Source: Candidatus Hodarchaeota archaeon
Lineage (GTDB): Archaea; Asgardarchaeota; Heimdallarchaeia; Hodarchaeales; Hodarchaeaceae
DNA: 16,049 nt
Reading direction: 5' to 3'
NCBI GenBank assembly: GCA_016840035.1
Contig: JAEOTC010000223.1
Location: 1 to 16,049, forward strand
Under the pieces are notes generated by a model. It saw only the letters and a list, made by a program, of their open reading frames with translations. It was not told where the DNA came from and did not search any database. Of this stretch, positions 1 through 16,049 are shown piece by piece. Position 1 is the stretch's first letter. Each line of letters opens with the position of its first letter. The translations under genes were made by a program, and so were the position numbers.

Positions 1-2
1 CC

Positions 3-824
3 AATCCTGGAGAAGAAATCATCATAGAGCGTAAAAGTCATATTTTTCTCTATGAAGTTGGAAGTGCTGCTAGAATCGGAGGATTGACAACTAAAGCTTT
101 TGAATCTTCAAGTGGAGTACCTAACATCGATAAACTTGAAACTATGCTTCGTCCCAGAGATGATGTGCATCAACCTTGGACAACATTACTCGCAGTCGAA
201 AACACCCATAATACTCATGGTGGAAAGGTAGTACATCCTAATGACCTAGCAAAATTATCTAAATTCACTAAGGAGCATGATATGAAATTACATATGGATG
301 GGGCGAGAATCTTCAACGCAGCGACAGCAGCTGATCTTCCTTTACCAAAATTTACTGATCATGTGGATTCAGTTATGTTCTGTTTATCTAAAGGAATGGC
401 ATGTCCTGTGGGATCATTAATTGTAGGATCACAAGAGTTTATTGATCGTGCACGAAAATTCCGTAAAATGCTTGGTGGAGGTATGAGACAGGCGGGTGTA
501 ATTGCCATTATGGGACTTGTAGCCCTTACACACGATTGGAAAAAACAGCTAAAGCAGGACCATATCCATGCAAAGCGATTAGCCACAGCATTAAGGGAAG
601 AAAATGAACAAATAGTGGTTACTATGCCAGAGACGAATATAATCAATTTTTCTTTCTCTGAAGCCGCTCCAACGAAAGAGATTCATGATGAGTTGGTGAA
701 ACGAGGTGTCTTGGGTCTACATAAAGGACACTATCAGCGTCTAGTGACTCATGTGGGTCTTTCAAGTGAGGATATTGATGAAATCATTACTATTTTAAAT
801 TCTACATTTAAGCAATACCTTTAA
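3..824 (+). CDS. ltaE: Low-specificity L-threonine aldolase (PLP-dependent), 5'-truncated by the window edge
   Basis: Frame is open from position 3 (NPGEEIIIERKSHIFLYEVG...), so the track's start at 84 is internal. Motifs ENTHN..GG, LHMDGARIFNA, SVMFCLSKG (PLP lysine), RKMLGGGMRQAG and RLVTH are present. Confidence 0.93.
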   Translation, partial: NPGEEIIIERKSHIFLYEVGSAARIGGLTTKAFESSSGVPNIDKLETMLRPRDDVHQPWTTLLAVENTHNTHGGKVVHPNDLAKLSKFTKEHDMKLHMDGARIFNAATAADLPLPKFTDHVDSVMFCLSKGMACPVGSLIVGSQEFIDRARKFRKMLGGGMRQAGVIAIMGLVALTHDWKKQLKQDHIHAKRLATALREENEQIVVTMPETNIINFSFSEAAPTKEIHDELVKRGVLGLHKGHYQRLVTHVGLSSEDIDEIITILNSTFKQYL

Positions 825-863
825 TGTATAATTCTTAGTATCTCATCTGCTTATTACATGCAC

Positions 864-884
864 AAAGAGGAAGGCTTTTAAAAA
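864..884 (+). promoter_or_regulatory. Putative archaeal BRE/TATA promoter for the small-ORF operon
   Basis: Purine-rich AAAGAGGAAGG (864-874) followed by TTTTAAAA (876-883). Expected transcription start at about 903-909 coincides with the start of a hairpin. Confidence 0.45.
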
Positions 885-903
885 CAATTGAAGATATGTC
901 TAG

Positions 904-932
904 TTGACAAAAGGCCAGGAAGCTTTTGTCGA
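904..932 (+). other. Stem-loop at predicted 5' end of transcript
   Basis: GACAAAAG (906-913) pairs perfectly with CTTTTGTC (923-930), extendable by U-G and U-A pairs; 9-nt loop GCCAGGAAG. Confidence 0.55.
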
Positions 933-948
933 TATCTGATGTGATATT

Positions 949-1020
949 ATGAAACAACTGAAGGCGCATATTTGGTGCCCTAATGGGATTCTTATTGTCA
1001 CACAACGCTATTTTATGTAA
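949..1020 (+). CDS. Putative 23-aa leader/micro-peptide MKQLKAHIWCPNGILIVTQRYFM (not in ORF track)
   Basis: ATG at 949, TAA at 1018-1020. The start context GTGATATTATG is identical to that of the SDR gene at 7130. Confidence 0.4.
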   Translation: MKQLKAHIWCPNGILIVTQRYFM

Positions 1021-1028
1021 ACCAAAAA

Positions 1029-1056
1029 TTCCTTACAATTCCTGGGTGTATAGGAA
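1029..1056 (+). other. Bulged stem-loop between the leader ORF and the zinc-ribbon RBS
   Basis: TTCCT-TACA (1029-1037) pairs with TGTA-(T)-AGGAA (1047-1056); ends 7 nt before GGAGGT (1064-1069). Confidence 0.45.
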
Positions 1057-1080
1057 GAATAACGGAGGTTTCTAAGAAAA

Positions 1081-1227
1081 ATGTTTTGCGACGAATGCGG
1101 TACTGTTTTATCCCCGCCCAAAGATGCTGATAGCCTTGGAGTTTGCGTAAATTGTAGTAAACGCGAGCTCGTGGCATCAGAAGAGCAATTATTGGTAGAA
1201 AATACCAGTGAGGTACGAGCAGCATGA
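1081..1227 (+). CDS. 48-aa C4 zinc-ribbon protein MFCDECGTVLSPPKDADSLGVCVNCSKRELVASEEQLLVENTSEVRAA (not in ORF track)
   Basis: SD GGAGGT at 1064-1069; C-x2-C-x15-C-x2-C; MFCxxCGxxLxP start; stop TGA overlaps the next ATG (ATGA 1224-1227). Confidence 0.8.
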   Translation: MFCDECGTVLSPPKDADSLGVCVNCSKRELVASEEQLLVENTSEVRAA

Positions 1228-1430
1228 AAAATGATCCAAGGTATTGTTCAGTTTGTAAAAAGCTTCTCTTGCGACAAAATCTCTTCGGTTATGTCTTATT
1301 GACATCCTGTGATAGCTGTACTGAAATTATTCACGAGAGTTGTTATTTGGAGCATCACCAGATTGCCCACAACTTGATTGCTTTAGTCATGGAAGAAGAG
1401 GAAATTGAAGCTGAATATTACAAACACTGA
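1224..1430 (+). CDS. 68-aa Cys/His-rich binuclear zinc-finger protein (B-box/PHD-like spacing) with acidic tail
   Basis: C8-x2-C11-x17-C29-x2-C32-x4-H37-x2-C40-x3-H44-x4-H49; ATGA coupling to the upstream ORF; tail MEEEEIEAE. Confidence 0.75.
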   Translation: MKNDPRYCSVCKKLLLRQNLFGYVLLTSCDSCTEIIHESCYLEHHQIAHNLIALVMEEEEIEAEYYKH

Positions 1431-1465
1431 GTGTACCTGGATCATTTCACGTGTTGTCTAGGGTT

Positions 1466-2611
1466 TCAAGGCATCCAGTCTAGTAACTTCGGATATCCAA
1501 CCTCTGCAAACTCCTTTTTAATAAGAACGATTTTCTCAAAAATAGGTTTCTTCAAACCGTCGATTTGAAGATCTGTTACAATCTTTCCTAACTTAGGTTG
1601 GATATTTTTCAAACCTGCTGTTAATCTAGAGTACTCATTCGGGAGCTGGATCTCTGTGAGGATTTCGTTTGTGTACATGGGGATCTCTTGATTCAATCCA
1701 CCAGAGAGGACTTTCAAACCATCATCTTCTGAGAGAGTATCTGGATTCATACATAATCGACTTAGTTGAGTAAACGCTTCCCTATAAGGATGGAAAATAT
1801 TGCGCGCTACTACGCCTCGAAGATACATCTGTTTTGTTTGTTCGGCTTGAAATAGAGCGAATGGGATGGTGGTCATTAGTTCAGTCATAAGCAGATCTTT
1901 GGAACTAACTAATGATTCAGCGGTCTGAGCTTTATCATATAGATCCATCGGAAGAACTATCCCACTAAGCTCACGATAATCAGTAATTACTTCTCCTGGG
2001 CTTAATCGAAACTGAACATAGTATACTCCCACGCCACTGAGAAAAATGAAAGGTTCTCCCCTTGTTTCTTCAAATCCTGTAACCGCGAAATCGGGTAAGA
2101 ATATCACATTGTCGTGTATGATTTCATATACAGGTTGGTTGAGATAAAATCCATTAAAAGGTCCAGTTCCAAGAAGTTTCCCCCAAGATGGGATTAAAAG
2201 AATCTGCTTTAAATTCGGAATTCCCTCAACACCAGCCTCTGGGTCAACGGGTACTTGGGTTGAGTCTTCATAAATTTCCAATCTGGCCTGTAGATATTCC
2301 TCTGTTTCTTTTTTCTCAAGTTCTTTTTTGCTTTGAGCCTTTCTGCGACCCATTTTCTCCAACTCTCCCAATCTTTTGTTAATTTTGTCTTGAACATCCG
2401 AGAGAAACTGTTCACGTAATGCGTTATAGCCATTACCATGTAAATAATTCTTATATTCAACTAATGATACACCAGATGCAGGATCAAACGTTCCTAACCT
2501 CTCAAAATATGGTTTGATTGTTTTTAATATCCTTTTTTCAAGGATAATCTTTTTTAATTCTTCTCCCAACTCGCGTGGTGTATCTGAGTTCTTTTTACTA
2601 TCTTCAGTCAT
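1466..2611 (-). CDS. Hypothetical protein, 381 aa, with charged helical/coiled-coil N-terminal third and globular C-terminal region
   Basis: Long ORF with purine-rich RBS-like GAGGGA upstream on the minus strand; no motif recognised. Confidence 0.85.
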   Translation of the reverse strand: MTEDSKKNSDTPRELGEELKKIILEKRILKTIKPYFERLGTFDPASGVSLVEYKNYLHGNGYNALREQFLSDVQDKINKRLGELEKMGRRKAQSKKELEKKETEEYLQARLEIYEDSTQVPVDPEAGVEGIPNLKQILLIPSWGKLLGTGPFNGFYLNQPVYEIIHDNVIFLPDFAVTGFEETRGEPFIFLSGVGVYYVQFRLSPGEVITDYRELSGIVLPMDLYDKAQTAESLVSSKDLLMTELMTTIPFALFQAEQTKQMYLRGVVARNIFHPYREAFTQLSRLCMNPDTLSEDDGLKVLSGGLNQEIPMYTNEILTEIQLPNEYSRLTAGLKNIQPKLGKIVTDLQIDGLKKPIFEKIVLIKKEFAEVGYPKLLDWMP

Positions 2612-2724
2612 TACTTATCCCTCTAACAATCTCATGGTGAATCTACACAATTATAGATTTATGAACCTATTCAATTGTCTCAATAAGAAATTTTAAATCA
2701 AGAACATTAGAGTTTGTACATAAA

Positions 2725-3519
2725 TTGATTTGTGAATCACAGGAGCTACCGAATATACTCGATCAAGAGTCAATAAAAATTGTTCAGGAAAGAGCAAACA
2801 ATATTTGGCCAGCTGAATTTTCTTATCTTTTAAATGGGTGGATATTACGTTTCAGTAAGGGAGTAACATGGAGAGCAAATTCTGTTCTTCCGTTAAATTA
2901 TTGGGGGAAGAATATCAACAAGGATATTAGTAAAGTAGAAGAAATCTACAGAAAATTTAATTCCTCTTCAAAGTTCATGCTACATGATCAGCATGATCCT
3001 CCAGAACTTCTTTCCGTATTAACCGAAGCATCCTATAAACCAGTGATGCCAACGCATGTAATGGGTAAACTTTTTGCTGATATTGATATCCAAAGTCACG
3101 ATAATGGATATAGCTATCATTTCATGACTAATAGAGATCCAGAATGGTATTCAGCATTAACTCGACTTAGTCCAAATCGATCCCCTTACAAGATGACCGT
3201 AATCGGTGAAATAATGGATCGAGTGCATATTCCCCAAAAGAGGTTCTTTTATGCAAAGAATAAATCAGACATTATCGGTGTAGTTCTCGCAATCATTGAT
3301 AGCGGATACATGGGAATCATGAATCTAGCGGTAGATCCAGAGTATCGAAATCAAGGTGTGGCAACAAACCTTATGTATCAGACTATAAATTGGGGAAAAA
3401 AAGAAGATACTAAATGGTTGTTTCTCCAAGTAGAAAAGTCTAACACCTCCGCAAGAGGTCTTTATGAAAAAATCAGATTGGAAGACTGGTATAGCTATAC
3501 TTATTACGAAAAAGAATAA
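2725..3519 (+). CDS. GNAT family N-acetyltransferase
   Basis: N-terminal GWILRFSKGVTWRANSVLPL; C-terminal acetyl-CoA motif A LAVDPEYRNQGVA and motif B LQVEKSNTSARGLYEK. TTG start is uncertain. Confidence 0.9.
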   Translation: MICESQELPNILDQESIKIVQERANNIWPAEFSYLLNGWILRFSKGVTWRANSVLPLNYWGKNINKDISKVEEIYRKFNSSSKFMLHDQHDPPELLSVLTEASYKPVMPTHVMGKLFADIDIQSHDNGYSYHFMTNRDPEWYSALTRLSPNRSPYKMTVIGEIMDRVHIPQKRFFYAKNKSDIIGVVLAIIDSGYMGIMNLAVDPEYRNQGVATNLMYQTINWGKKEDTKWLFLQVEKSNTSARGLYEKIRLEDWYSYTYYEKE

Positions 3520-3695
3520 TCTTCTAATTAGAAGAAGGAAAAACTATCAGATTTTTCTTTGCCAACAACAGTGGGAATATAAAGTGACATTGGAACTCAT
3601 TACAAGTTACGCTCAACATGGATCATTTAGTATGGGGATTGTTACTTCATTCTCTTTATTTTAAATGCCTTTAATCCAACGTTGGTGGAGATAAA

Positions 3696-6600
3696 ATGCA
3701 AGATACTAGTCCGCTCAATCAAGAAAAATCTCAATTTGTTCGAAAATTAACGCGTACAAAAGATGATTTCGAACGACTTGCACGTTGCTATAATTCGTTC
3801 AAGGATCCTGAAAGTTGGCCTGGAGGTTTCGGAGGAACTAGAATATTTACGGGTGAATTTATCGAAAAAGAGATGAAGGCGCAAGATTTGGAAGGGCATT
3901 TTGTTGCCATAGCTCCCGATGACCCAGATAAGATCGTTGGGGTTTGTTTCATCGGAAAATCGTGGAATAGTCCCAATTCTTACTATGTTCAATTTCTGGG
4001 CGTTGATCCGGCATATCAGGGTCAAAAGCTTGGAAAAGCAATGCTTTTACATGCAACAGATTACGTAACAAAATTAAAAGCTCTCCTGCTTTCATTACAC
4101 ACCTGGGGAGGTAATTTAAAGGCAATGCCACTGTATAAACGACAGGGGTACAAATGGAGACCCAATACTTCTGTGTATATGGAGAATTATCTTCCACAGA
4201 TTCTTAACTACCCGTATTTCCAAGAATTCTTCTCGAACCTCTCGAAGTCTTGGTACGAGTGCTTTGTTCCTAAGATAACACAGGAACCAGATACCAACTT
4301 AGATGATCAAATGCAAATATATGAATATGAATTTCAAGATCAAGACCAGCGTTTAGTTATCTGGGTGGATAGATCCATAGGCAAGATTAGTGGGTTTCAT
4401 TTAAAAACAACAACTGAAGATATCCTAATCCAAGGAAAAATATCAAATTCACATGGTTTTATTGGCTCTGAGGAATTTCCCATCAATCTTAGATTCACCA
4501 ACAATTCAGAAACAGATCTAAATATATCGTATGAGGTTGAACCTACCCCAAAAATTAAATTACTTAATTCCAAGATGAAAAACCAAATTAAAATACCAAA
4601 TTCTTTATCTAAATCGATAGAAGTTCAAGGGTCTTTCCTAGTCGACACAAATGAACTTGATACAAAGATTCATACCCACACATTAACTGAACATGGAATC
4701 ATTTTTAAAATTAAACATAAAAACCAAATTTTCCCATTAACCGTGGGAAAAATTCCAGTTAAGGCTATTAAAGTCGATCCTTATCCTACCAATTTTGCTA
4801 CAATACCAGAAAATGATGTGACAATTCCCTTAACCTTACAGAATAATATTGGTGAGGAGACTCATTTAGTAGTTAGTGTTAAGGACGGAAACAATATTTC
4901 TTTCAAAAAACATAGAGAAGAACTTATTCTCGGGAAATATGATTCAACCGTCAAATTCAATGCATCAACGCAGTCAACTGGGAGTGTAGTTGATTGGTTC
5001 GAAATTGAAATTAGATCTACTGAAGATAAACTTCTTACCAAAGAAACTATTCCAATAATGATCTTTAATAAAAATAAATCTCTTTATTATGAACGAGATC
5101 AACAGATTTTTATTGAGAATAAGCATATCCGAATAACACTATTCACAGAATCCCAACCGGGGAGTAATGAGGTCTTCATCACCGATAAACTGAGAAAATT
5201 GCAAGTATTTGGTCTACCCATTGTACTTGGGTATCCATTCGATGTTGAGGGGAGTGAATTTTATTCAAAAAAGCATACTCACGAGACTCGACAAGATGAA
5301 GGAGGGGTTTGGTTATTAAGCTCCTCAACCTCCGATCTAAAGTCTGGGATTGAGGTTACAAGGAGAATTTATCTTCCTAATGAAGGTGATTTTCTTTCAG
5401 TAGAGTGGGAGGTTAGAAATAACTCTGAAAAGGTGCAAGAGAATCTAGGAGTGGTAAATCATACTTATTGGTGGCCCTCCACAATTTCTCTTCTGAGTCG
5501 TGTCCTTCCCTTGAAATCTGGTGTGAAAGAATTGGATATTCTTGCTTTTCCTATAGATTTGGGAAAGGAACCCTCGATGTATTCAGAGGGTTGGCAAGCA
5601 GCTGTGTACAAAACAGGTGCATTTGGAGTATTCTTTGATCAGGAGAACATTGATAAAATAACCATTGGACGAGCTCAACCAAATATCGATATTAAAGTCC
5701 CAAATTTAGCCGTTGGCGAATACTATCTTACTGAACCGATTTATCTTACCTTTGCTGATAATTGGCAGACAATTCGAAAGAAATGGAAGGAACAGTATCA
5801 ACCCTCTCCGATTAATGAGGTTGAATATTCACGTGTTGCTAGTTCGCTTAAACAAATAGGCCTGAGAAATTCATGCGAAGGAAACACCATTGCTTACGGG
5901 GCTTTTCTCGATCGAAATAATCACAACTTAGAACTAAGTATCGATACTTTCCGAGAGACCTCCTTTAAGGGCTCTATGGAATTAACAATGGGAAAATTAG
6001 GATCAGATCTGAAAATTGATCTGCCAGAGGAAAAAGGGCAATATTTCAATCGTTCTGTCGATCTCGATATTCCCGAAGAAGAGCAAATTCTGGAAGGGAT
6101 GTTAAGCATCGACTCTTTGACACGAATTTTCGAATATCCAGTTGCATTAGGAATATTTGATACATCTCAAAATGTCACAATTACTCACACTGCGGATTCA
6201 GACGTGTACGAAGTTTCTAACAGTGTTTTTACTTTTAGAGGAAGTGAGAAGTACCGTGGAAACGTATTCCACCTATCACTAGACGGCAAAAAAGAGAATT
6301 TACTTCATACAGGCTCTGCTCCTTTTCCTGAAGTAAAACCATTTCTTTGGTTTCATCAGTTTTTTGGAGGTATTGGACCAGTACTGCAACCTGAAGGATT
6401 AAGGGATGTAGAAAATTTCAATACTCTTATATTTAAGTATTACCAGCCTTCTGCCGGGAAATGGAAAGGAATTGGTTTCAAATCTAGCATTATTGAGTAT
6501 TCACCCAAGATTAAAGGTTTACAGATAGCAACAGAGTATTTAACGCTCCCAAATTCTCCATTCCTTCTCGTTCAGACTCATGTGTATAATCACTCTGATA

Positions 6601-7034
6601 TAATTCGAAAATTCTCCCTCCAGATTGAAGGAAAAATGAAAACAACTGGCACGAGTAAAGATTTTTATTTCATTGATGATATAGAATCACCGAATCATTA
6701 TCTAAAATATCGACTCCAGGACTGGGAAGCTTTAGTTTGGCTTGAGAAAGGACCTCAGCCTAAATGGTGTGCTTATAAAAATGAGAATTGCGACTTTTAC
6801 ATGGCTGCAGTAATCCCAACCGTGAATATGAACGAATATGCATATCCTTATGCTCCAAATCTGAAGATAATAATGCTGGATCTTATAACAAATTCTGAGC
6901 AAATCTTACCTCAACAAATGTTGACATTCCGTATGTTATACTTCTTTACAGATAGTCTTGAGAGTGTTCATCCTTTTACACAGTCGAATCTGCTAGATTT
7001 ATTCCCTGAACAACAGAGATTTCCAGTAGACTAG
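3696..7034 (+). CDS. Large (1112 aa) GNAT-domain protein with long beta-rich C-terminal extension
   Basis: GGTGGAG RBS; motif A LGVDPAYQGQKLGKAML and motif B TWGGNLKAMPLYKRQGY within the first ~165 aa; remainder shows beta-strand-like patterning; no signal peptide or TM seen. Confidence 0.88.
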   Translation: MQDTSPLNQEKSQFVRKLTRTKDDFERLARCYNSFKDPESWPGGFGGTRIFTGEFIEKEMKAQDLEGHFVAIAPDDPDKIVGVCFIGKSWNSPNSYYVQFLGVDPAYQGQKLGKAMLLHATDYVTKLKALLLSLHTWGGNLKAMPLYKRQGYKWRPNTSVYMENYLPQILNYPYFQEFFSNLSKSWYECFVPKITQEPDTNLDDQMQIYEYEFQDQDQRLVIWVDRSIGKISGFHLKTTTEDILIQGKISNSHGFIGSEEFPINLRFTNNSETDLNISYEVEPTPKIKLLNSKMKNQIKIPNSLSKSIEVQGSFLVDTNELDTKIHTHTLTEHGIIFKIKHKNQIFPLTVGKIPVKAIKVDPYPTNFATIPENDVTIPLTLQNNIGEETHLVVSVKDGNNISFKKHREELILGKYDSTVKFNASTQSTGSVVDWFEIEIRSTEDKLLTKETIPIMIFNKNKSLYYERDQQIFIENKHIRITLFTESQPGSNEVFITDKLRKLQVFGLPIVLGYPFDVEGSEFYSKKHTHETRQDEGGVWLLSSSTSDLKSGIEVTRRIYLPNEGDFLSVEWEVRNNSEKVQENLGVVNHTYWWPSTISLLSRVLPLKSGVKELDILAFPIDLGKEPSMYSEGWQAAVYKTGAFGVFFDQENIDKITIGRAQPNIDIKVPNLAVGEYYLTEPIYLTFADNWQTIRKKWKEQYQPSPINEVEYSRVASSLKQIGLRNSCEGNTIAYGAFLDRNNHNLELSIDTFRETSFKGSMELTMGKLGSDLKIDLPEEKGQYFNRSVDLDIPEEEQILEGMLSIDSLTRIFEYPVALGIFDTSQNVTITHTADSDVYEVSNSVFTFRGSEKYRGNVFHLSLDGKKENLLHTGSAPFPEVKPFLWFHQFFGGIGPVLQPEGLRDVENFNTLIFKYYQPSAGKWKGIGFKSSIIEYSPKIKGLQIATEYLTLPNSPFLLVQTHVYNHSDIIRKFSLQIEGKMKTTGTSKDFYFIDDIESPNHYLKYRLQDWEALVWLEKGPQPKWCAYKNENCDFYMAAVIPTVNMNEYAYPYAPNLKIIMLDLITNSEQILPQQMLTFRMLYFFTDSLESVHPFTQSNLLDLFPEQQRFPVD

Positions 7035-7042
7035 CTCTTCTG

Positions 7043-7057
7043 AGAATATGATATTCT
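7043..7057. promoter_or_regulatory. Perfect palindrome AGAATAT-G-ATATTCT, possible operator
   Basis: 7-bp arms with a 1-nt centre in the intergenic space upstream of the SDR gene. Confidence 0.3.
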
Positions 7058-7129
7058 GAGAGAAACGTATTTTGTTTCATCAGTTCTGCGGAAGAAATGT
7101 AACCTTTTTACTTCGAATAAGGTGATATT

Positions 7130-7867
7130 ATGGTTCATAATGGTAAAGTAGTAATTGTGACCGGTGCATCAAAAGGGATTGGCAGAGCTATCAGTCACAA
7201 GTTAGCGAGTCTTGATTTTAATTTAATGCTTGTTTCTCGTGATTTATCGTCATTGAATAAAGTGAAATCAGAAATCTCTAGTTTAGGAGGGGGAGAAATA
7301 GAGGTTCTCTCTTGTGATTTGACTCAAGAGGATGAGATACAGAATTTAGTTGAGAAAACATTAGAACGATTTGAAAAAATTGATGTTTTAGTGAATAACG
7401 CAGGAGTTGGACGTTTTAAACGTGTAGATGATTTTACTCTTGATGATTATGATTTTATGTTTGATCTAAACGTTAAAGGACTATTTCTTTTAACAAAATA
7501 CATTATTCCTTACCTAATTACCCAAAAAAGTGGACATGTCATAAACATTAGTAGTATTGCAGGAAAAAACGGATTCAAGAGTGGATCTTTATATTCTGCG
7601 TCTAAACATGCCGTACAAGGATTTACATGGTCTTTAAGAGAAGATGTAAAAGAATTTGGAATAAAAGTTACTGCAGTGTGCCCAGGAAGTGTTCTAACAA
7701 GGTTTGGAGGGAAAAAGGCAGAAAATGTAGACTGGTCTCTTGAACCAGAGGATGTGGCCCACGCTATTGGATTTCTAGTTACAGAATCTGACTATGTTAA
7801 CACAGCTGAAATCATAATTAAGCCTCGTTATAATCCACGAACAGTGAATTGGGAAACAAGAATTTAA
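7130..7867 (+). CDS. Short-chain dehydrogenase/reductase (classical SDR)
   Basis: TGASKGIG Rossmann motif, NNAG, catalytic S and YSASK, PG motif; SD AGGTGAT. Confidence 0.95.
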   Translation: MVHNGKVVIVTGASKGIGRAISHKLASLDFNLMLVSRDLSSLNKVKSEISSLGGGEIEVLSCDLTQEDEIQNLVEKTLERFEKIDVLVNNAGVGRFKRVDDFTLDDYDFMFDLNVKGLFLLTKYIIPYLITQKSGHVINISSIAGKNGFKSGSLYSASKHAVQGFTWSLREDVKEFGIKVTAVCPGSVLTRFGGKKAENVDWSLEPEDVAHAIGFLVTESDYVNTAEIIIKPRYNPRTVNWETRI

Positions 7868-7895
7868 GAAAACCACCAATGGGCGGTTACAGTTT

Positions 7896-8225
7896 ATGCA
7901 GGAAAAAATAAACCTCGCTCGTGTCTATTATCAGAGTTGGGCAAATCAAGACAAAAAGACTGTCAAGGAATGTTTAGCTAAGAATTTTACATTTTATAGT
8001 CCTCAAGATAAATTTACTGATCCAGTGGAATTTATCTCATCCTGTTGGATTTATTCACAGGGATTAGTTAAGGTTGAATTTATTAAAGAAGCTTATAATC
8101 AGGATCAAGTTACACTGCATATGCTTTGGCATGGAGAAGATGGATCAACTTTCACTAGTACAGAACATGTTACAATCAGAGATGGTAAGATTACTACAAT
8201 TGTAGTAGAAAATAATAATTCATAA
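7896..8225 (+). CDS. SnoaL-like / NTF2-fold protein
   Basis: 109 aa; YYQSW...D...LAKNFTFYSP at the N-terminus and IRDGKITTI at the C-terminus are typical of SnoaL-like domains. Confidence 0.8.
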   Translation: MQEKINLARVYYQSWANQDKKTVKECLAKNFTFYSPQDKFTDPVEFISSCWIYSQGLVKVEFIKEAYNQDQVTLHMLWHGEDGSTFTSTEHVTIRDGKITTIVVENNNS

Positions 8226-8485
8226 ATCAATTATCGCTATATGATACTTACATGTGTCTTGTTATCATAATTTAGAATTATTTATGAACCTCTGTCGCTA
8301 ATTAAACCTTAATTGATGTTTTAATGTCCAGTTTAACATATTTAGGTCATGTTCAAGGTCTGTGTAACTGAAAACAAAAAAGCGTACCTATAAACTATTT
8401 AATTGGTATCAAACAAATTTTTCCTTGAATAGGAAGATTGAAACTCACTTACTCCAAAGAAAAGAAATCAAACCAGTGAAATCAT

Positions 8486-9985
8486 ATGCGTCATATCTCA
8501 AAAATTGCCAATATAATGATTGGAGTTTGTATTCTTGCATTCATAATCCCTTCAGTAGTCAATGTAAGTTCTAGCTCTAGTGCTGGAATTGATGAAATGA
8601 ATATCGTTTTTATAACTAATAATGATGCTGATTATGAGCTTGCTACTGCTGTAAACCAAACACTCAATCTTAATGCGACTATTCTAGACATAAAGACGAG
8701 TGAGGATCTAAATGAAGTAATCTCTGCAGGGAATTATTACGAAAATTATGATTCAATTATCCTCATCCTAAATCAACTATCTCCATTAAGTAATTCATCT
8801 ATAGCGGATTTAGAATCTTATGTAAGTAATGGGAATTTATTTGGAATTATATCCACACAGATCTGGCGATTTAACACATCATTTCATACGTTAATGGGTT
8901 TAAGCATCGAAATGCAAGGTCAAAAGGTTTATCCGATGGGGAATGTTTCAGATTCAATTGAAATATCCATTACAAATGGCACATTATTAACAGAACCATT
9001 TTCTTTTTATGAAAATACTACGCTATCCCTAGAGGGAGGCGTGGGTATTACACAAGCCATATCACAATCATATCAAATAGCAACGAGTTCGAATCCCCCT
9101 TATGGAAATACAAGTCTAAATGCTTTTGAATATGACTCTGGCTTTATCTTTGCGCTACCCATATCACCAATTGACGTTTCTCCCTCACTAACTGGATTAT
9201 CCCAGTTTGTATCCGCAATTACTTCATCAGGATTAAATTCATTGGAAAGAAATGAGATTGATAATGGAGATGAGTCAACCACAGCTCCTGCTAGGATTTT
9301 ATTTATGCTTACGAATGAGGAATTAGAAACGGGAGTTACAATCGGATTAATCTCAGTATTACTTGTTATTCTTGGGTATTTTGTCTCAAAAATTACTATT
9401 AAGCCCCAAGTAAACCTTGATCTTCCAAAAGATAAGACGTTGATGGCATATCTACTAACTCCCATAATTTTCATTGGACAAATTTTATATCCCCCCATTG
9501 TTAGACGAATAGATACCTACGATGTCATGGAAAATGAATATCGAAACCAAATCCTAACGATTCTTGATGAAAGAGAATTTCTACATTTTAGAGAACTTAA
9601 AAGAGAGCTTAATATAGGCACATCAAGTCTTAGATGGCATTTACAAGTCCTTGAGGATTTCAGACTTATTGATAGACAAGTTTTTGGTCAATATGAGATT
9701 TATTACTTAATACGTCGAATCCCCGACCCTGGTTTTCTAGTATTATACTTTTCAATTATATCAGGAGGAGGTTACCGCATCGCACAGGCTTTTTCACGGG
9801 TGAATACATGGGAGTTAAGCACTCTGGCAGATTATTTGGGTCAATCAAAGGAAGCTGTCAGGTACCATCTCAAAAAATTGGAACAAATTAATTTAATTCA
9901 TCATATTAACAATAAGTATATTCTGAATTCCCAGAAAGGTTCTATTCTAAAGTCTGCACTTGAAAGACGCGGTAAAACGAATTAG
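8486..9985 (+). CDS. Membrane-anchored transcriptional regulator: signal/TM, ectodomain, TM segment(s), two winged-helix domains (COG3398/ArsR-like)
   Basis: Hydrophobic aa ~9-26; N/S/T-rich domain with several N-x-S/T sequons; TM GVTIGLISVLLVILGYFV and hydrophobic LMAYLLTPIIFIGQILYP; HTH1 ENEYRNQIL...LHFRELKRELNIGTSSLRWHLQVLEDFRLI; HTH2 LSTLADYLGQSKEAVRYHLKKLEQINLI. Confidence 0.82.
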   Translation: MRHISKIANIMIGVCILAFIIPSVVNVSSSSSAGIDEMNIVFITNNDADYELATAVNQTLNLNATILDIKTSEDLNEVISAGNYYENYDSIILILNQLSPLSNSSIADLESYVSNGNLFGIISTQIWRFNTSFHTLMGLSIEMQGQKVYPMGNVSDSIEISITNGTLLTEPFSFYENTTLSLEGGVGITQAISQSYQIATSSNPPYGNTSLNAFEYDSGFIFALPISPIDVSPSLTGLSQFVSAITSSGLNSLERNEIDNGDESTTAPARILFMLTNEELETGVTIGLISVLLVILGYFVSKITIKPQVNLDLPKDKTLMAYLLTPIIFIGQILYPPIVRRIDTYDVMENEYRNQILTILDEREFLHFRELKRELNIGTSSLRWHLQVLEDFRLIDRQVFGQYEIYYLIRRIPDPGFLVLYFSIISGGGYRIAQAFSRVNTWELSTLADYLGQSKEAVRYHLKKLEQINLIHHINNKYILNSQKGSILKSALERRGKTN

Positions 9986-10175
9986 ATTTCTGAAGATTGA
10001 TTTCTGTTTTTTTGAAATTCTTATTGTATAAAAAATTCAATTTCAAAACTTGATTGCGAATTACTCATTCTTCCAAAAAAGTGTTCCTCAAATCATTAAT
10101 AATTAGCCGAATACAGACTACCTGACTTAATCAATTGTTTAACATTAAGTTTGATATACTAAGAAGTGATAATAA

Positions 10176-11267
10176 ATGAAAAAGAAATTGAGTATTCCAA
10201 TAACTCTTATATTCGGAGTCCTCCTTCTAAGCTTCGTCAGTCAAGCAGCATCTGCTGATACATATGTTGTAAAACAAGCTATTGCTACAGCTGATCCTCC
10301 TACTGACGGATGGCAGAATGTTGAGAATGGTGTAAGAGTAAATATTTCGGCAGGAAATCGAACACGTTTGAGGACACAAAATGGTACTCAAATTCGTCTT
10401 AGAACTCAGGAAAATGTTAGTCTTCATTTAACTGAGACAGACGATAATCCTGAAGGGCCATTACCGAATAAGACAAGAAATGTTATACGTTTTATGAATG
10501 TTGAGTTAAATGGTACAACAGCTATGAATGCAACCATGTTTCACAACTTTACTCATGTCGAATTGACAGGTTTAGGGAACTATTCAACATTTCGGTGGGC
10601 GTATTATAACGAAGAATCCTTTGAGTGGCAGTATGCATATGAAAATTGGGTAGAAGAACGTCCTGATGGAGCAGCTGTATTTTGCAATACAACTCACTTC
10701 TCAACTTGGGTTATTTTAGCTCCTCAAGTTGTAGACGCACCACCAGTAGATAAACCCAATCCAGAAAATGCCTATAATTCTAAGAACGGTACAGCTTTTG
10801 CTCTTCAAGGTGGAAACCGTTACCAGATCCGAACACAGAGTGGATTTTCTCTACAGATCCAACTCAATAAGAGTGCAGAAGTTACTGTCACAGAATATGA
10901 AGAATCTCCGCAGCTTATGAACAGAGAAAGACATCGAATTCGAACTCAAACTATGAGTGTTGAGTTAAATTGCTCCGCAGGAATCAATGCTACATTTGCA
11001 TATGAATTTTCGCATGAGAACCGTACTCAAATGGGTATAAAGAATATGGAGAAACTCAAATTCATGTTTTACAATGAAACATCCAATGAATGGGAAGCTC
11101 CCAAAAATCAATGGATAGAAGGTGATACGTTATACTGTAATACAACTCATTTCAGTTTGTGGACTATTGCTGAAGAAGAAGTTGATTCATCTTCAACCCC
11201 GAGTTTTACCTTACTACCTCTGTTAGGCACTCTAGCCACAATTATCATCATAAGAAGAAGGAAATAA
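10176..11267 (+). CDS. Cell-surface glycoprotein with two tandem ~135-aa domains each ending in CNTTHFSxW, and a PGF-CTERM-like anchor
   Basis: Signal peptide (MKKKLS...AASA); internal duplication; 17 N-x-S/T sequons counted; C-terminus SSSTPSF + hydrophobic helix + RRRK; SD AAGTGAT. Confidence 0.85.
   Translation: MKKKLSIPITLIFGVLLLSFVSQAASADTYVVKQAIATADPPTDGWQNVENGVRVNISAGNRTRLRTQNGTQIRLRTQENVSLHLTETDDNPEGPLPNKTRNVIRFMNVELNGTTAMNATMFHNFTHVELTGLGNYSTFRWAYYNEESFEWQYAYENWVEERPDGAAVFCNTTHFSTWVILAPQVVDAPPVDKPNPENAYNSKNGTAFALQGGNRYQIRTQSGFSLQIQLNKSAEVTVTEYEESPQLMNRERHRIRTQTMSVELNCSAGINATFAYEFSHENRTQMGIKNMEKLKFMFYNETSNEWEAPKNQWIEGDTLYCNTTHFSLWTIAEEEVDSSSTPSFTLLPLLGTLATIIIIRRRK
10494..11162 (+). 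repeat. Intragenic domain duplication visible at DNA level
   Basis: ATGAATGTTGAGTTAAAT (10494) vs ATGAGTGTTGAGTTAAAT (10953); TGCAATACAACTCACTTC (10683) vs TGTAATACAACTCATTTC (11136). Confidence 0.8.
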
Positions 11268-11302
11268 TTTCCCTCTTCTTCTTTTTTTTTATGCTATTTT
11301 TT
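11268..11302 (+). terminator. Oligo-T/pyrimidine-rich archaeal-type terminator between convergent genes
   Basis: TTTCCCTCTTCTTC followed by T9 (11282-11290) and a further T run immediately after the stop codon. Confidence 0.6.
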
Positions 11303-11313
11303 CAGAGAGAAAA

Positions 11314-12354
11314 TTAGGTTTTAAATTTCTTAACATCTTCTACTAAGACTCTACTCATCTCTTGTAAATCCTGAGTAGCTGAAGTTAATTGTGACATCGA
11401 AGCTATTTGTTCCTCACTAGAAGCAGCAACCTCCTCACTACTTGCAGAAAACTCTTCTGCCTGAGTAGCAAAATTTTGGAAAGCCTCCTTTATTTTTGTA
11501 CTGGATCCTTTAATATTTTGAGTGAAAGAATCAGTAATTTCGGTGATATCTTTACTATGACTCTGTGTTTCCTCTGCTAACCTGCGTACATTATCTGTAA
11601 CGACTGCAAATCCACGTCCATACTCTCCAGCTCTTGCTGCCTCAATTGCTGCATTTAAAGCAAGAATGGTTGTTTGAGAGGCAATATCGTTAATTGTACC
11701 CAAGGTGCTTTCAATCGCAATGAACGCCTCATCAACAGATTTGGTCATGTCACTTACATCCTGATATCCCTGATTCGCTACTTCAGAGATCAAAGCGGCA
11801 CCTTGAGAAATTTGATTAATCGAAAGCGAAATTTCGTTACTTAAGGAGTTTAACTCATTACTTAATGTCATTAATTCACTAGAAGATCCATCCACTTGGA
11901 AAGATGATTTTTTTACCGTTGTAATAATATCTCGAAGGTTTCTAATTGCAGTAGAGTAGGATACGTACGATTTTTCAATTTCATCTTCACTCGTAGAGCT
12001 GGTATATTCAGGTACTGTCGATAAATCATTGTCCGAAATCTGGTCAGCAAATTTTTCTAGCTGTTTTATTGGATTCATTAATACACGACTTAGGAGTAGT
12101 GCTATGACAATTGCTAATACGACTGAAAAAGTAATTGTGGTTCCACTTCTAAACATAATTCCTTGATATCTTGCCTTCAAATTGTCTCCTTCCTCACCAG
12201 ATACCAAGGGTTGTGTATACCGGAAGAAGTCCGCTGTTCCTGTGGTTGCGATCACCATCACAAGACTTAGGGGCCCTAATCCTACAAGCAACATTCCGAT
12301 AAGTAATTTTGTTCTTATTCCTCATTTATTAAATATTTTGTCAAAAAATTTCAT
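11314..12354 (-). CDS. Methyl-accepting chemotaxis protein (TM-short loop-TM-HAMP-signalling domain); full frame interrupted by an in-frame TGA at codon 11, possibly a pseudogene or restarting at 12294
   Basis: Signature [29 protein letters not shown]; HAMP NPIKQL...DEI. The upstream in-frame reading is [19 protein letters not shown], starting from ATG 12354 with GGAG upstream. Confidence 0.88.
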
Positions 12355-12705
12355 TTAATCAGCCTTCTCCAATAACCCAATAAAATTAGATACAGAAGTT
12401 GATATTTCAGATATTATAATCTTGACAGCTTTTAGTAACATTTAGAAATTCATAGATTTTTCCCAAATGATGCAATGATTGACATAAGGCAATTTTGTAC
12501 CAAGGAGAGGGCAATCCTTTTCATTTTTATTAAACTAATTAAGTAAAAATGTTGGATACAAATAAACAAATTGAGAGAAGCATTATACGAATTTTCCTTG
12601 GAATAAGGTCAAAACTAGCAAACCAAGAAAACGTAGTACAAACTAGTCTTAGAATCTTGCCTTATTTACTTATGTTTTAATATAAGCTTGGTAATAATCA
12701 ATTGA

Positions 12706-14016
12706 ATGACATCAAGTGATTGGGCCAAAATTTCTGATAATGTAAAGAAGTGGTTTAATAAGATAACTGAACCCTCTCCTGAAATTGATGAGGAAGAATT
12801 ACGACTAAAGATAAGATTTTTTAATTCAACATTCTTTTTTTTCTTTATCTTCTCCAATTTACTGTTTTTTTTCAGAATTTTCCTTCTTCTAATTTCCTCT
12901 ACACCACTACTATCGTGGGGGTTTATTCAATCACTAGTTCTTTCAATAATAGCATTGTCTTTCTTATGTATAGGAAGAACCATTTACTATCAATATGCAC
13001 TCACAGCGATATTTTGGGTACCATTAATCCAGCCTTTAATCACAATTTCCTTGTATAACTCCGTTGATGATGCAGATATGATTATTATCAATCCTACGAT
13101 GATTTTTATTTTAGGGATTCTGCTAGTAGGTATTATTTATTCACGAAAAGGAACAATTGTTTTCAGTACTATTAGCATAATGGAGTTGTTTCTCTTTTAT
13201 GGAATAATCCTAGAATATCCTATCACCTGGATTACGCCAAAAGTAGTCTTTTTACTAATTATTGCTTTTATTACAATCATTGGGATACTGTATCGGGAAC
13301 AATTAGATAGATTCAAAGAAGGATTCAAAGATCAACGTGATAGATTTATCTTTATGACAAATCACGAATTGAGGAATCCATGTACAGTCATTAAAGGGTA
13401 TAATGAGTGGTTATTATCAAATTATGACAAGATCAATGATCAACAGAAGATTTCGATTCTTGGCAATATCAGCAATAATGTTGCACGGTTAGAACGTCTT
13501 ATTGAAGAAGTTTCGGATGTTGATCAAATCGAACGGGGGATATTTCAAATCAAAAAAGAAGAATTTGATTTTAATGCCTTTTTTGAAGAATTTCTTGATC
13601 CGTATAAAGCCAGTTTGTCTAATGTCTTAGAATATCATAATTTATTGAAAAATGAAGAACATACAATCCTAGGAGATCGTGATCGTCTCTCACAAGTTTT
13701 TATTAACATCCTTGAGAATGCTCTAAAGCAGACTCCTCAAAATAAGCGAAAAATATCTATAATCTTGGACAAGGTGGAAGATTATCTTCGGGTATCTATC
13801 ATGGATAATGGAGCAGGAATCGCCTCGGAGAATTTGGAAATTATCTTTGATCAATTTGTCTCTATTCAAACTGAATATTCTTCAACTGGTACAGGTATTG
13901 GACTTTATGTTGCGCGTCAAATCGTCAATAATCTTGGAGGGGAAATTCGTGCTGACAGCAAAGGAATCGGATCTGGCTCCACATTTATTGTAAAGCTCCC
14001 CTATTTTAAGAATTAG
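12706..14016 (+). CDS. Membrane-bound sensor histidine kinase (multi-TM, HisKA, HATPase_c)
   Basis: About six hydrophobic segments in aa 40-195; H-box HELRNP, N-box QVFINILENALK, G1 DNGAGI, F-box IFDQF, G2 GTGIGL. Confidence 0.95.
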   Translation: MTSSDWAKISDNVKKWFNKITEPSPEIDEEELRLKIRFFNSTFFFFFIFSNLLFFFRIFLLLISSTPLLSWGFIQSLVLSIIALSFLCIGRTIYYQYALTAIFWVPLIQPLITISLYNSVDDADMIIINPTMIFILGILLVGIIYSRKGTIVFSTISIMELFLFYGIILEYPITWITPKVVFLLIIAFITIIGILYREQLDRFKEGFKDQRDRFIFMTNHELRNPCTVIKGYNEWLLSNYDKINDQQKISILGNISNNVARLERLIEEVSDVDQIERGIFQIKKEEFDFNAFFEEFLDPYKASLSNVLEYHNLLKNEEHTILGDRDRLSQVFINILENALKQTPQNKRKISIILDKVEDYLRVSIMDNGAGIASENLEIIFDQFVSIQTEYSSTGTGIGLYVARQIVNNLGGEIRADSKGIGSGSTFIVKLPYFKN

Positions 14017-14053
14017 AGGATAATAATCTCTAGGAATAGTGTTTAGGATAGTG

Positions 14054-14097
14054 CATTTCGTCTTCAAATGTGTTTGAAGACATTCGGATGAAATGTC
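14054..14097. other. Inverted-repeat / stem-loop element downstream of the kinase
   Basis: GTCTTCAAA (14060-14068) / TTTGAAGAC (14073-14081) perfect 9-bp stem; flanking CATTTC (14054-14059) / GAAATG (14090-14095). Confidence 0.45.
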
Positions 14098-14269
14098 GGA
14101 AGCATCTGCAAAAAGAATAATGGATGAAAATAATTCATTTTATGACCTGATTCACAAATAGAGATTAAGATTATTATTTGTGAAGAAAAACTAAAATAAG
14201 ACAGAATGGATACTAATTTATATGTACTTTAACAGTATTGAAATATATTTTCAAGGATTCTGATATAAC

Positions 14270-14833
14270 TTGAGCTATTTTGACGATGAGAGTAATGTTG
14301 AACAGTATATTAAAATGGCTGAAGGATTCAATGGTCAGGAAATAATTAATCATTTAATTAACTATTTACCGCATGGTTCATCAGTGCTTGAATTAGGAAT
14401 GGGGCCTGGAACGGATATTCCTCTCTTAGAGAAACATTACAAGGTCACAGGATCGGATTATTCCAAAATTTTTATCGATCGTTATCAAAAATTGCATCCT
14501 GAGGCTGATTTGTTAGTCTTAAACGCAATCACCCTTGAAACAAATCGTAAATTCCATGGTATATATTCTAATAAGGTTTTAATTCATCTTACTCGTACTG
14601 AGTTAATACAATCTATTAGGAGACAAGCAATGATTCTAAATCCATATGGGGTCATTTGTCATTCATTCTGGAGAGGAATCAAAGAGGAAAACCATCATGG
14701 GTTACTTTTCACCTATTATGAAGAAAATGATCTTAGAAATTTGTTTTCAGAAAACTTTACTATCCTTGAAATAAAGAAATATAGAGAATCAGAACCAGAT
14801 GATTCAATTTTACTAATAGGAAGAAAAATTTAG
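14270..14833 (+). CDS. Class I SAM-dependent methyltransferase
   Basis: Motif I VLELGMGPG, VTGSDYS, FHGIYSNKVLIHL, ILNPYG; TTG start. Confidence 0.9.
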   Translation: MSYFDDESNVEQYIKMAEGFNGQEIINHLINYLPHGSSVLELGMGPGTDIPLLEKHYKVTGSDYSKIFIDRYQKLHPEADLLVLNAITLETNRKFHGIYSNKVLIHLTRTELIQSIRRQAMILNPYGVICHSFWRGIKEENHHGLLFTYYEENDLRNLFSENFTILEIKKYRESEPDDSILLIGRKI

Positions 14834-14945
14834 TGTCCTTTCTCACTCGTTTCGTGACCTGTATTTGACGAAAGCCAGTTTTAAAAATTCAAATCCGAGT
14901 TTGAAGATGTTTTCAAAAAGTTGTATAACCAAGGCAAAATGATCT

Positions 14946-14980
14946 TTGTAGTATTGTAGTCAATATTGTATTTATGTAGT
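14946..14980 (+). promoter_or_regulatory. Repeated TGTAGT boxes upstream of the toxin-antitoxin operon, putative autoregulatory operator
   Basis: TGTAGT at 14947, 14955 and 14975, TGTATT at 14967; reverse complement ACTACA at 15031-15036. Confidence 0.4.
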
Positions 14981-15021
14981 AAAACTTATTAGTATCATTT
15001 CAATATTAAATTTGAAATAAT

Positions 15022-15294
15022 ATGGGATCTACTACACGAAGAGTATCAGAGGCAGAACTACAGAAACTGAAAGAAATTCAAATCCATCTTAAGCAAATTG
15101 GAATTGATATTAGTCAAGTAGAACTGAGTGAAACTATCACCAATTATGTTTTAGAACGTTTCGATGATTTTATTAAAGAATATCGCGCCAAAACAGAGCA
15201 TGACAAGCAAGACACTCTTTTAAATTGGATAAACACTCCTTTTGATGGTGAAGAACAAACTGATGCTGTTAAGGAACATGATGTGACTCAGTAA
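15022..15294 (+). CDS. Putative VapB-type antitoxin
   Basis: 90 aa; N-terminal TTRRVS strand followed by helices (RHH-like); acidic C-terminus ending TDAVKEHD; TAATG overlap with the PIN gene. Confidence 0.7.
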   Translation: MGSTTRRVSEAELQKLKEIQIHLKQIGIDISQVELSETITNYVLERFDDFIKEYRAKTEHDKQDTLLNWINTPFDGEEQTDAVKEHDVTQ

Positions 15295-15689
15295 TGTTCA
15301 TAGATAGCGTAGTATGGATTGCGCTCAAATATAAAAAAGATCAATGGCACAAAGAAGCTACCCATCTAAAGAATAGAATCGTGAGATTAGAAAAAATTCT
15401 CGTAACTGATTTTGTTATTGTAGAAACATATAACTTCTTATTAAGAAAAATTTCATTGACAGCCGCACAAGAAACGCTTGTAATGTTCCTCGAAAGTCAA
15501 AAAGTTGTGATCTTGTACAATAATTTTCTCACTCTATCAAATTCAAAGAAAATTTTGGAAAAACATAATCATCTTAGTCTAACAGACGCGAATATTGTGT
15601 GGTTTTCCAAAAATTTAAACATTGAAGAAATAATAAGCTTCGATAAGGGATTTGATAGCGTTTCTGGAATTGAAAGGATATCTAAGTGA
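15294..15689 (+). CDS. vapC: PIN-domain ribonuclease toxin (VapC family)
   Basis: MFIDS..., D..H, VIVET, LSLTDA and SFDKGF give the conserved acidic PIN residues; 131 aa. Confidence 0.92.
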   Translation: MFIDSVVWIALKYKKDQWHKEATHLKNRIVRLEKILVTDFVIVETYNFLLRKISLTAAQETLVMFLESQKVVILYNNFLTLSNSKKILEKHNHLSLTDANIVWFSKNLNIEEIISFDKGFDSVSGIERISK

Positions 15690-15710
15690 ATTCTCAATTG
15701 ATCTTCCAAG

Positions 15711-15893
15711 ATGGATTTCTACAAGAACATTATTATGATGAACTTCCATAATATAGCTAATCATGCAGAACCAGATCATTCTGGAACATTTAATAAAGTT
15801 TTAACATTGTATCCAGATGCTCAAGTGGTTTGTACGGAGAAAGGGATATCCCAATTTATGTTCTCCAAAAAGGTATCTCTTACTATATTTTGA
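15711..15893 (+). pseudogene. fprA: Fragment of a flavodiiron protein (FprA/NorV-type metallo-beta-lactamase domain)
   Basis: IANHAEPDHSG...YPDAQVVCTEKG (about 15753-15845) matches the H-x-E-x-D-H diiron motif region; the rest of the ~400-aa protein is absent. Confidence 0.7.
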
Positions 15894-15974
15894 TATGCAG
15901 AAAATAACTTATCTGAAGTTTAGGTCATATATCAAATTTCATCCATTCTTCACCGTTTTCCCTGATCCTTTAAG

Positions 15975-16005
15975 AAAAAAAAAAGATCTTAGGTGTTTAC
16001 CTAAG
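15975..16005 (-). terminator. Hairpin plus T10 terminator for a minus-strand gene entering from the right edge
   Basis: CTTAGGT (15988-15994) / ACCTAAG (15999-16005) stem with 4-nt loop; A10 at 15975-15984 reads as T10 downstream on the minus strand. Confidence 0.55.
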
Positions 16006-16049
16006 CAGAATTTGAAGTTAAACTAAGTTCAGTACCGAAACAATCTTGA

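Follow-up and report, generated by a model that had tools for sequence, protein, structure and literature searches.

A stretch of 16,049 nucleotides from a Candidatus Hodarchaeota archaeon (GenBank assembly GCA_016840035.1, contig JAEOTC010000223.1, positions 1 to 16,049; hereafter the window) carries a gene for a small surface protein, P0001, in which the tripeptide His-Phe-Ser (HFS) occurs twice. HF/S is the cleavage sequence of PIDD1 and Nup98, with two such sites in tandem domains in PIDD1, and animal adhesion receptors sense mechanical force by way of self-cleaving GAIN-type domains. In bacteria, GAIN-type cleavage was demonstrated only in 2026 and has so far been linked to the release of large passengers alone (Brogan and Rudner, bioRxiv 10.64898/2026.05.12.724683). 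The question raised by the window is whether P0001 cuts itself at one or both of its HFS motifs, and what a protein of this kind would do at the archaeal surface. Taken as a whole, the data are best explained by a surface glycoprotein of two beta-sandwich domains, held by a Heimdall-CTERM tail, in which each domain is most likely cis-autoproteolytic; we consider this explanation likely. The features of the gene, all on the forward strand, are as follows.

10176-11267, +: tandem HFS surface-protein gene (P0001), 363 residues, from the open reading frame list and its translation
10176-10256, +: signal peptide, residues 1-27 (MKKK, hydrophobic core, SQAASA), from reading of the sequence; the model has a helix at 8-18 and then a disordered linker
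10305-10727, +: domain 1, residues 44-184, beta-sandwich of the GAIN-B/ZU5/MAIN type; predicted local distance difference test (pLDDT) mostly above 90, domain profile A3 at E 5e-56
10695-10703, +: H174-F175-S176, predicted scissile bond F175/S176; invariant in 57 orthologues, turn 173-176
10761-11180, +: domain 2, residues 196-335, membrane-proximal beta-sandwich of the GAIN-B/ZU5/MAIN type, from the single-domain model and VIA-align
11148-11156, +: H325-F326-S327, predicted scissile bond F326/S327; invariant, in a turn between strands, placed by alignment to GAIN chain ends
11196-11264, +: Heimdall-CTERM sorting signal, residues 341-363 (TPSF, hydrophobic helix, RRRK), from NF045529

Layout of the tandem HFS protein

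The 36-kDa product consists of a signal peptide, a short disordered linker, two domains of about 140 residues each, an acidic Ser-rich spacer and a C-terminal tail. The signal peptide appears from its sequence to be of the Sec type, and its cleavage position is a predicted one. An alignment of the protein with itself matched residues 28-190 to residues 191-345 with 36% identity (E 9e-29), which puts the two HFS motifs in register and identifies a true internal duplication. An earlier note, made from the letters of the sequence, had described two repeats, one in which AYYNEESFEW is followed 18 residues on by CNTTHFSTWVI (H174 at nucleotide 10695) and one in which MFYNETSNEW is followed 14 residues on by CNTTHFSLWTI (H325 at nucleotide 11148). 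The translation and the recomputed coordinates agree with both. The note had also held that the protein is made of two such domains with no passenger, and this stands, as the domains fill residues 44-335 and Pfam recognises no module at all. NCBIfam recognised the C-terminal tail alone. In the genome to which the window belongs (an 87%-complete metagenome-assembled genome (MAG) of 4.3 Mb), the HFS domain is found in the P0001 gene alone.

A three-residue motif is short, and this is the only point in favour of a chance occurrence or a spurious reading frame. Two HFS tripeptides were present in 45 of 200,000 shuffles of P0001, and about 65 orthologue clusters exist (36-77% identity, exclusively from Hodarchaeales, Heimdallarchaeota or 'Promethearchaeota' MAGs) in which length and architecture are conserved. 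Together with the internal repeat and the confident fold prediction described below, these clusters rule the explanation out, leaving it a negligible probability.

Predicted fold and position of the HFS motif

AlphaFold2 models were built with the orthologue alignment. The whole protein was modelled with a mean pLDDT of 84, most of both domains lying above 90, and domain 2 alone gave a pLDDT of 90.4 and a predicted template modelling score (pTM) of 0.82. In both domains HFS is placed in a non-strand turn between the penultimate and the last beta-strand. The turn of domain 1 (173-176) is flanked by strands 165-172 and 177-183, and HFS of domain 2 by strands 318-323 and 328-334.

Foldseek searches of the PDB with the whole protein returned the ankyrin ZU5A-ZU5B tandem first (E 3e-6), with domains 1 and 2 of P0001 pairing against it, and then NLRP1 FIIND and GAIN domains. 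With a single domain as query, the GAIN domains of CD97, BAI2 and BAI3, NLRP1 FIIND and the ZU5 domains of ankyrin and UNC5 came out on top (probability about 1.0, template modelling (TM) score 0.41-0.62). Domain 2 was also aligned exhaustively to 48,161 representative chains with VIA-align, independently of Foldseek. The top 17 chains belong to the GAIN-B, ZU5 and FIIND families (Z 9.9-8.1 over 115-132 of 140 residues), among them CD97 GAIN (9.9), BAI3 GAIN (9.7), ankyrin ZU5 (9.4-9.0), CARD8 FIIND (8.5), CELSR1 (8.2) and GPR126 and GPR110 (both 8.1); FIIND domains ranged from 8.5 to 6.5.

Where these alignments end is informative as to the predicted site. For the N-terminal chains of cleaved GAIN domains (6v55_A, 8hc0_A, 5kvm_A, which ends at residue 382, 7qu8_A and 8vti_A), the alignment stops at model residue 131, which is F326, and for a human NLRP1 ZU5 chain, whose last residue is F1212, the match reaches model residue 132. 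With uncleaved or single-chain entries, in contrast, the alignment runs on through the last strand. We take GPR56 to be cut at L382/T383 and NLRP1 at F1212/S1213. Since the ends of cleaved chains align on F326, the predicted F326/S327 bond is structurally equivalent to known cleavage sites.

A module similar to GPS/GAIN, ZU5 or Nup98, with HFS in a turn ahead of the final strand, had been proposed in the earlier note; the AlphaFold2 models place the motif there, and GAIN-B, ankyrin ZU5 and NLRP1/CARD8 FIIND head both structural searches. A sequence profile search of the PDB, on the other hand, gave spurious weak matches alone, such as arenavirus GP2 (E 0.07), which shares 'NxTHFS'. We assign the domains to the GAIN-B/ZU5/MAIN superfamily with high confidence.

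Comparison with known self-cleaving domains

Brogan and Rudner gave the name MAIN (Microbial Autoproteolysis INducing) to prokaryotic GAIN-B-like domains. In several bacterial proteins these were shown by Edman sequencing to be cut between F and S of HFS; cleavage was lost upon S-to-A substitution, and the products remained stably associated. Examples include YfkN of Bacillus subtilis and the IgA-Fc receptor of Streptococcus agalactiae. MAIN proteins have essentially one layout, a signal peptide, an adhesion or enzymatic passenger, the MAIN domain and an anchor (sortase, cell-wall or SLH), with a mean size of 158 kDa. For archaea the report is bioinformatic only, and the anchored stub has so far been linked to no signalling. 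The text of the preprint makes no mention of Asgard archaea, of tandem or passenger-less forms or of PGF-type anchors. An earlier study (Zhang et al., 2012, PMC3482391) had brought ZU5, GPS and the Nup98 autoproteolytic domain together in one superfamily and had predicted ZU5 autopeptidases among the polymorphic toxins and surface proteins of bacteria.

P0001 resembles MAIN proteins in its GAIN-B-like sandwich, in the HFS turn that precedes the last strand, in its signal peptide and in having a surface anchor directly C-terminal of the domain. It differs in its size of 36 kDa, in consisting of two MAIN-type domains only, in its Heimdall-CTERM anchor, in being paired with a membrane-tethered regulator and in that its cleavage is predicted. 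As it has no passenger, P0001 falls short of the architectural description of MAIN.

GAIN/GPS domains of adhesion G-protein-coupled receptors (GPCRs) and polycystin-1 have H-x-(S/T) at the equivalent turn and lie next to the membrane, as does domain 2 of P0001, in which a short C-terminal strand would likewise stay tethered. CD97, BAI3, CELSR1, GPR126 and GPR110 are the best GAIN matches of domain 2. However, P0001 has no helical GAIN-A part, each of its domains being a 140-residue all-beta structure with one short helix; it has neither the cysteine pairs of GPS nor a match to PF01825, and a 23-residue sorting tail and a stop codon stand in place of the receptor with seven or eleven transmembrane segments.

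With the ZU5 proteins (the ankyrin tandem, PIDD1 and the FIIND of NLRP1 and CARD8) P0001 shares the fold, and ankyrin ZU5A-ZU5B is its best whole-protein match. Those proteins act in cytoplasmic eukaryotic signalling with UPA and death or CARD domains, whereas P0001 is predicted to be extracellular and glycosylated. PF00791 (ZU5) has no match in P0001; a six-frame scan of the genome also gave none, and control genomes were equally silent, so that the scan is uninformative. The ZU5 domains of bacterial polymorphic toxins and surface proteins resemble P0001 in being prokaryotic, secreted and predicted to process themselves at the cell surface. An Acetatifactor protein (L078), described below, has an architecture of that kind. 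The ZU5 domains of the toxins and surface proteins occur in very large RHS, toxin or adhesin proteins, whereas P0001 has no toxin, RHS or adhesin module.

On predicted fold, motif, topology and weak sequence similarity, P0001 is thus placed within the GAIN-B/ZU5/MAIN superfamily, and at the level of sequence and context it fails the definitions of the GAIN and ZU5 families. The kind of domain is known from bacteria as MAIN; what is new in P0001 is the tandem, passenger-less form confined to Hodarchaeales.

Conservation of the motif and glycosylation

Neither site shows any change in H, F, S or the W that comes next among 57 aligned orthologues (37-77% identity), and in domain 2 the whole of C-N-x-T-H-F-S is invariant. 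Each domain has one conserved Cys (C170 and C321). P0001 contains 17 N-x-S/T sequons, compared with 4.9 +/- 1.9 in shuffled sequences, and the majority are conserved; its sequence thus makes it very probably a heavily N-glycosylated surface protein. Of the sequons next to the motifs, N322-T-T, before the second site, is kept in 57 of 57 orthologues and N171-T-T in 32 of 57.

To cover the wider family, a single-domain profile was searched against 1.84 billion representative proteins at E<=1e-3. The 252 proteins found contain one to four copies of the domain, nearly always together with a signal peptide and a hydrophobic tail at the C-terminus. Among 289 near-full-length copies, 270 have HFS and five HLS; the remaining 14 were scored as having no H-x-S/T. 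These 14 comprise truncated sequences, one miss of the regular expression (P0087 does carry HFS) and degenerate copies, often membrane-distal in multi-domain proteins. In P0096, P0115 and P0128, for instance, the His is gone from one copy (RFG, RLL and RTA) and HFS is retained in another, P0096 alone having a third copy. The archaeal relatives P0085, P0126, P0138 and P0159 carry H-L-S, the form found in animal GPS, in place of H-F-S. A 2,824-aa PKD protein of Cloacimonadota (P0123) was rejected as a member, its profile match running through the PKD repeats with no HFS.

These counts bear on whether P0001 might be a non-cleaving structural or adhesive glycoprotein, with ZU5-like sandwiches as building blocks of the envelope and T-HFS-W kept for folding, as a tight turn with buried Phe and Trp. 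Conservation by itself does not identify a catalytic pair here, since W, T and C beside the motif are conserved to the same degree as H and S. In addition, the fold is shared with the ZU5 domains of ankyrin and UNC5, in which no cleavage takes place, and P0001 has no passenger that could be released. What such an explanation leaves unaccounted for is the pattern of change across the family: the His base and Ser nucleophile are kept together in 270 of 289 copies, the sole common variant (HLS) retains both, and motif-less copies, mainly extra ones in multi-domain proteins, lost His or Ser along with the family signature. Moreover, bacterial domains with the same fold and motif do cleave. We therefore regard a non-cleaving role as unlikely, although it is the strongest of the alternatives.

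Proposed autoproteolysis

Cis-autoproteolysis of P0001 most probably follows the scheme of the MAIN domain, with a cut at HF/S and products held together by the last strand. In each domain, the His at position -2 would activate the Ser at +1, which would attack the Phe-Ser peptide bond; an N-to-O acyl shift followed by hydrolysis of the ester would complete the cut. Three pieces would result, namely residues ~28-175 (17 kDa), residues 176-326 (17 kDa) and a short anchored peptide starting SLWTIAEEE. The last strand of each sandwich would become the N-terminus of the piece that follows, and this would keep the three associated; a force or a ligand could later detach one or both of the ectodomain pieces. 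That at least one of the two sites is cleaved seems probable to us; that both are cleaved is a closer call, on which we lean slightly towards yes.

Whether only one site is active, most likely the membrane-proximal F326/S327, depends on how domain 1 is viewed. If it were an inactive 'passenger', P0001 would amount to a single MAIN domain, in keeping with canonical MAIN and GAIN proteins, which cleave in the domain adjacent to the anchor. The stronger conservation of domain 2 points the same way, its C321-N-T-T-H-F-S being fully invariant and the N171-T-T sequon of domain 1 being kept in only part of the orthologues. However, H174, F175, S176 and W178 of domain 1 are likewise invariant, and the three-domain relatives P0071 and P0072 retain HFS in all three copies. 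PIDD1 has two tandem ZU5-type domains, both of which are cut at HF/S. A single active site is accordingly an improbable arrangement in our estimate, more so than a protein that does not cleave.

Several points weigh against self-cleavage of both domains as the account of P0001. F/S cleavage in P0001 and in all archaeal members is a prediction from sequence and models, and Pfam (hmmscan) gave zero matches to P0001 even at E<=1, GPS, ZU5, Nup98 and FIIND included. The fold does not ensure the reaction, as the non-cleaving ZU5 domains mentioned above make plain; likewise, some GAIN domains with an intact consensus stay uncleaved, and the BAI2 GAIN entry 8oek is labelled 'uncleaved state'. With no passenger to release, the release rationale of MAIN proteins is not obviously applicable. 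The pTM of the whole-protein model is 0.46, and the relative orientation of domains 1 and 2 is uncertain. Finally, N322 of the fully conserved N-T-T lies five residues ahead of the scissile bond, and a glycan on it could affect the reaction at F326/S327.

C-terminal anchor

The earlier note placed a membrane anchor about 15 residues past the second site. The distance is right, S327 lying 15 residues before the P-S-F of the hydrophobic tail, but the anchor is more than a transmembrane helix, being a sorting signal of the archaeosortase type, Heimdall-CTERM. With NF045529 (cut-off 24), the tail scored 23.3 bits when the protein was searched and 28.6 bits in the scan of the genome, and orthologues mostly have PGF where P0001 has PSF. 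A kinship with PGF-pre-PGF domains, also raised in that note, found no support, as NCBIfam gave no such match at E<=1. Literature searches for Heimdall-CTERM, and for Asgard together with GAIN domain, found no paper.

The tail would probably be cut off and replaced by a lipid through the action of an archaeosortase. An archaeosortase-like gene with a weak Exosortase_EpsH match (L006:6274-6990, +) lies directly downstream of an HFS orthologue in another locus, and a homologue with 67% identity (E 8e-99) is present in the genome of the window (G000:C112:39891-40547, -). A Pfam Exosortase_EpsH scan of this genome gave no match. Judged by sequence, the gene is a candidate for the processing of Heimdall-CTERM tails. 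At least 23 open frames of the same genome end in Heimdall-CTERM above the cut-off (33 at E<=0.01), a large surface proteome of the archaeosortase type.

Distribution of the domain

Within the Asgard phylum, a domain match was found in 55 of 201 genomes. The two-domain form is limited there to the genus-level group of the window (five of nine other genomes), three-domain forms occur in a sister family, and single-domain forms of about 230 aa are found in 34 of 40 genomes of another Asgard family. Scanning 185,579 species genomes for the pattern added about 44 Bathyarchaeia and two bacteria.

One bacterial protein, from a MAG of Acetatifactor sp. (Bacillota; L078:1138-4803, +; 1,221 aa), contains two CBM2 domains, TSP3-like Asp-rich repeats, an HFS domain in mid-protein (…SCKTTHFSTWLVV…) and a C-terminal DUF6402. 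By hhalign this domain matched the Asgard profile (probability 95.9%, E 6e-9) across only 57 columns at the C-terminal end. Its HFS domain is not adjacent to an anchor, a placement resembling that of polymorphic-toxin-type ZU5 domains. Structure neighbours in the Atlas (TM score 0.68-0.76) include small Bathyarchaeota proteins and large bacterial surface proteins with VWA, TSP3, DUF11, Peptidase_M23, Big_13 or SBBP domains; the latter have a MAIN-type architecture. A Pfam scan of 76 distant relatives gave nothing on the HFS domain, and a word-indexed search for longer relatives returned, among its best 8,000 candidates, the same family only, with no link to large bacterial proteins.

Eukaryotic relatives

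In about 31-35 of the 143 matches listed, TTHFSTWGVYG is directly followed by a stretch of small residues and an uncharged hydrophobic tail, a sequence pattern that looks like a glycosylphosphatidylinositol (GPI) attachment signal. The recorded sources of members with such tails are Fimicolochytrium jonesii (a chytrid), Planoprotostelium fungivorum (Amoebozoa), Gefionella okellyi (a malawimonad) and an MMETSP transcript. Eukaryotic members were matched at E 3e-14 to 8e-7 against the whole library, the alignments spanning the full domain, and none of them has a Pfam GPS or ZU5 match. P0104, P0109, P0113, P0116, P0168, P0185, P0110 and P0131 make up an unannotated eukaryotic family with a signal peptide, one or two HFS domains and a GPI-signal-like tail; many metatranscriptome-like contigs of about 1 kb also belong to it.

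A FastTree phylogeny of 181 domain copies placed the eukaryote-type sequences in one clade (local support 98) and domains 1 and 2 of Hodarchaeales in another (support 95). The two domains group together, so the duplication took place inside the Hodarchaeales. The phylogeny is unrooted, rests on few columns, includes neither bacterial MAIN nor canonical GAIN sequences and is silent on direction or donor. Through its sequence-level link to eukaryotic GPI-type proteins, the family offers a concrete way to study how GAIN-like juxtamembrane cleavage arose in evolution.

Neighbouring genes and possible signalling

Directly upstream of P0001 lies the gene of a putative membrane-tethered regulator.

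8486-9985, +: membrane-tethered regulator P0214, 499 residues; Pfam helix-turn-helix matches at residues 343-483

P0214 has an exported, sequon-rich ectodomain of unassigned fold, one or more transmembrane segments and two cytoplasmic winged-helix domains. An orthologue is found directly upstream of the HFS gene in four of six other loci (L001, with 45% identity; L002, with 28%; L003; L006), and the two loci without it are those with the most divergent members of the HFS protein. The homologue lists of P0001 and P0214 share at least 16 contigs, with consecutive locus tags, and P0214 orthologues are confined to Hodarchaeales, almost always beside a tandem HFS gene. The pairing of the HFS gene with the membrane-tethered regulator is real. 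The two may be separate transcription units, as a T-run follows the stop codon of the regulator and 190 bp separate the genes.

Searches for a relation between the two proteins themselves were less informative. By hhalign, the P0214 ectodomain matched the HFS domain with a probability of 0.5%, and no motif-less copy was thus detected by sequence. A complex prediction for the P0214 ectodomain (28-275) with the HFS domains (44-335) scored 0.00 and gave no answer, which counts neither for nor against binding. An Atlas feature search with the ectodomain gave scores of 0.91 to unnamed clusters and was likewise uninformative.

A wider reading, which we find doubtful, would make P0001 the sensing half of a two-gene surface-to-DNA module and would also give it direct common ancestry with the eukaryotic GPI-anchored HFS-domain family of the chytrid, the amoebozoan, the malawimonad and marine protists. 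In such a module, force or a ligand would strip the ectodomain pieces, and the lipid-anchored stub SLWTIAEEE or the shed pieces would act on the ectodomain of P0214. If true, the module would parallel, in an archaeon, the tethered-agonist logic known from adhesion GPCRs, and juxtamembrane GAIN-type autoproteolysis would be common to Asgard archaea and eukaryotes.

In the P0001 family, the archaea known to be most closely related to eukaryotes offer such a domain system in minimal form, with two domains, no passenger, a lipid-type anchor and a conserved membrane-bound transcription factor encoded alongside. If P0001 cleaves, it would be a small and tractable system for what the domain does alone, and it could show whether a tethered stub signals, a point left open by Brogan and Rudner.

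Other genes of the window are also of a sensory kind. Downstream of P0001 are a methyl-accepting-chemotaxis-type protein (MCPsignal) with an N-terminal membrane segment (11314-12294, -) and a HisKA/HATPase histidine kinase (12706-14016, +). These sensory genes cluster around the HFS/regulator pair here, but the other loci examined do not have them as conserved neighbours. Further upstream, a 1,112-aa protein (3696-7034, +) has an N-terminal GNAT acetyltransferase domain (residues 51-153) as its only recognised part, with about 950 residues belonging to no family.

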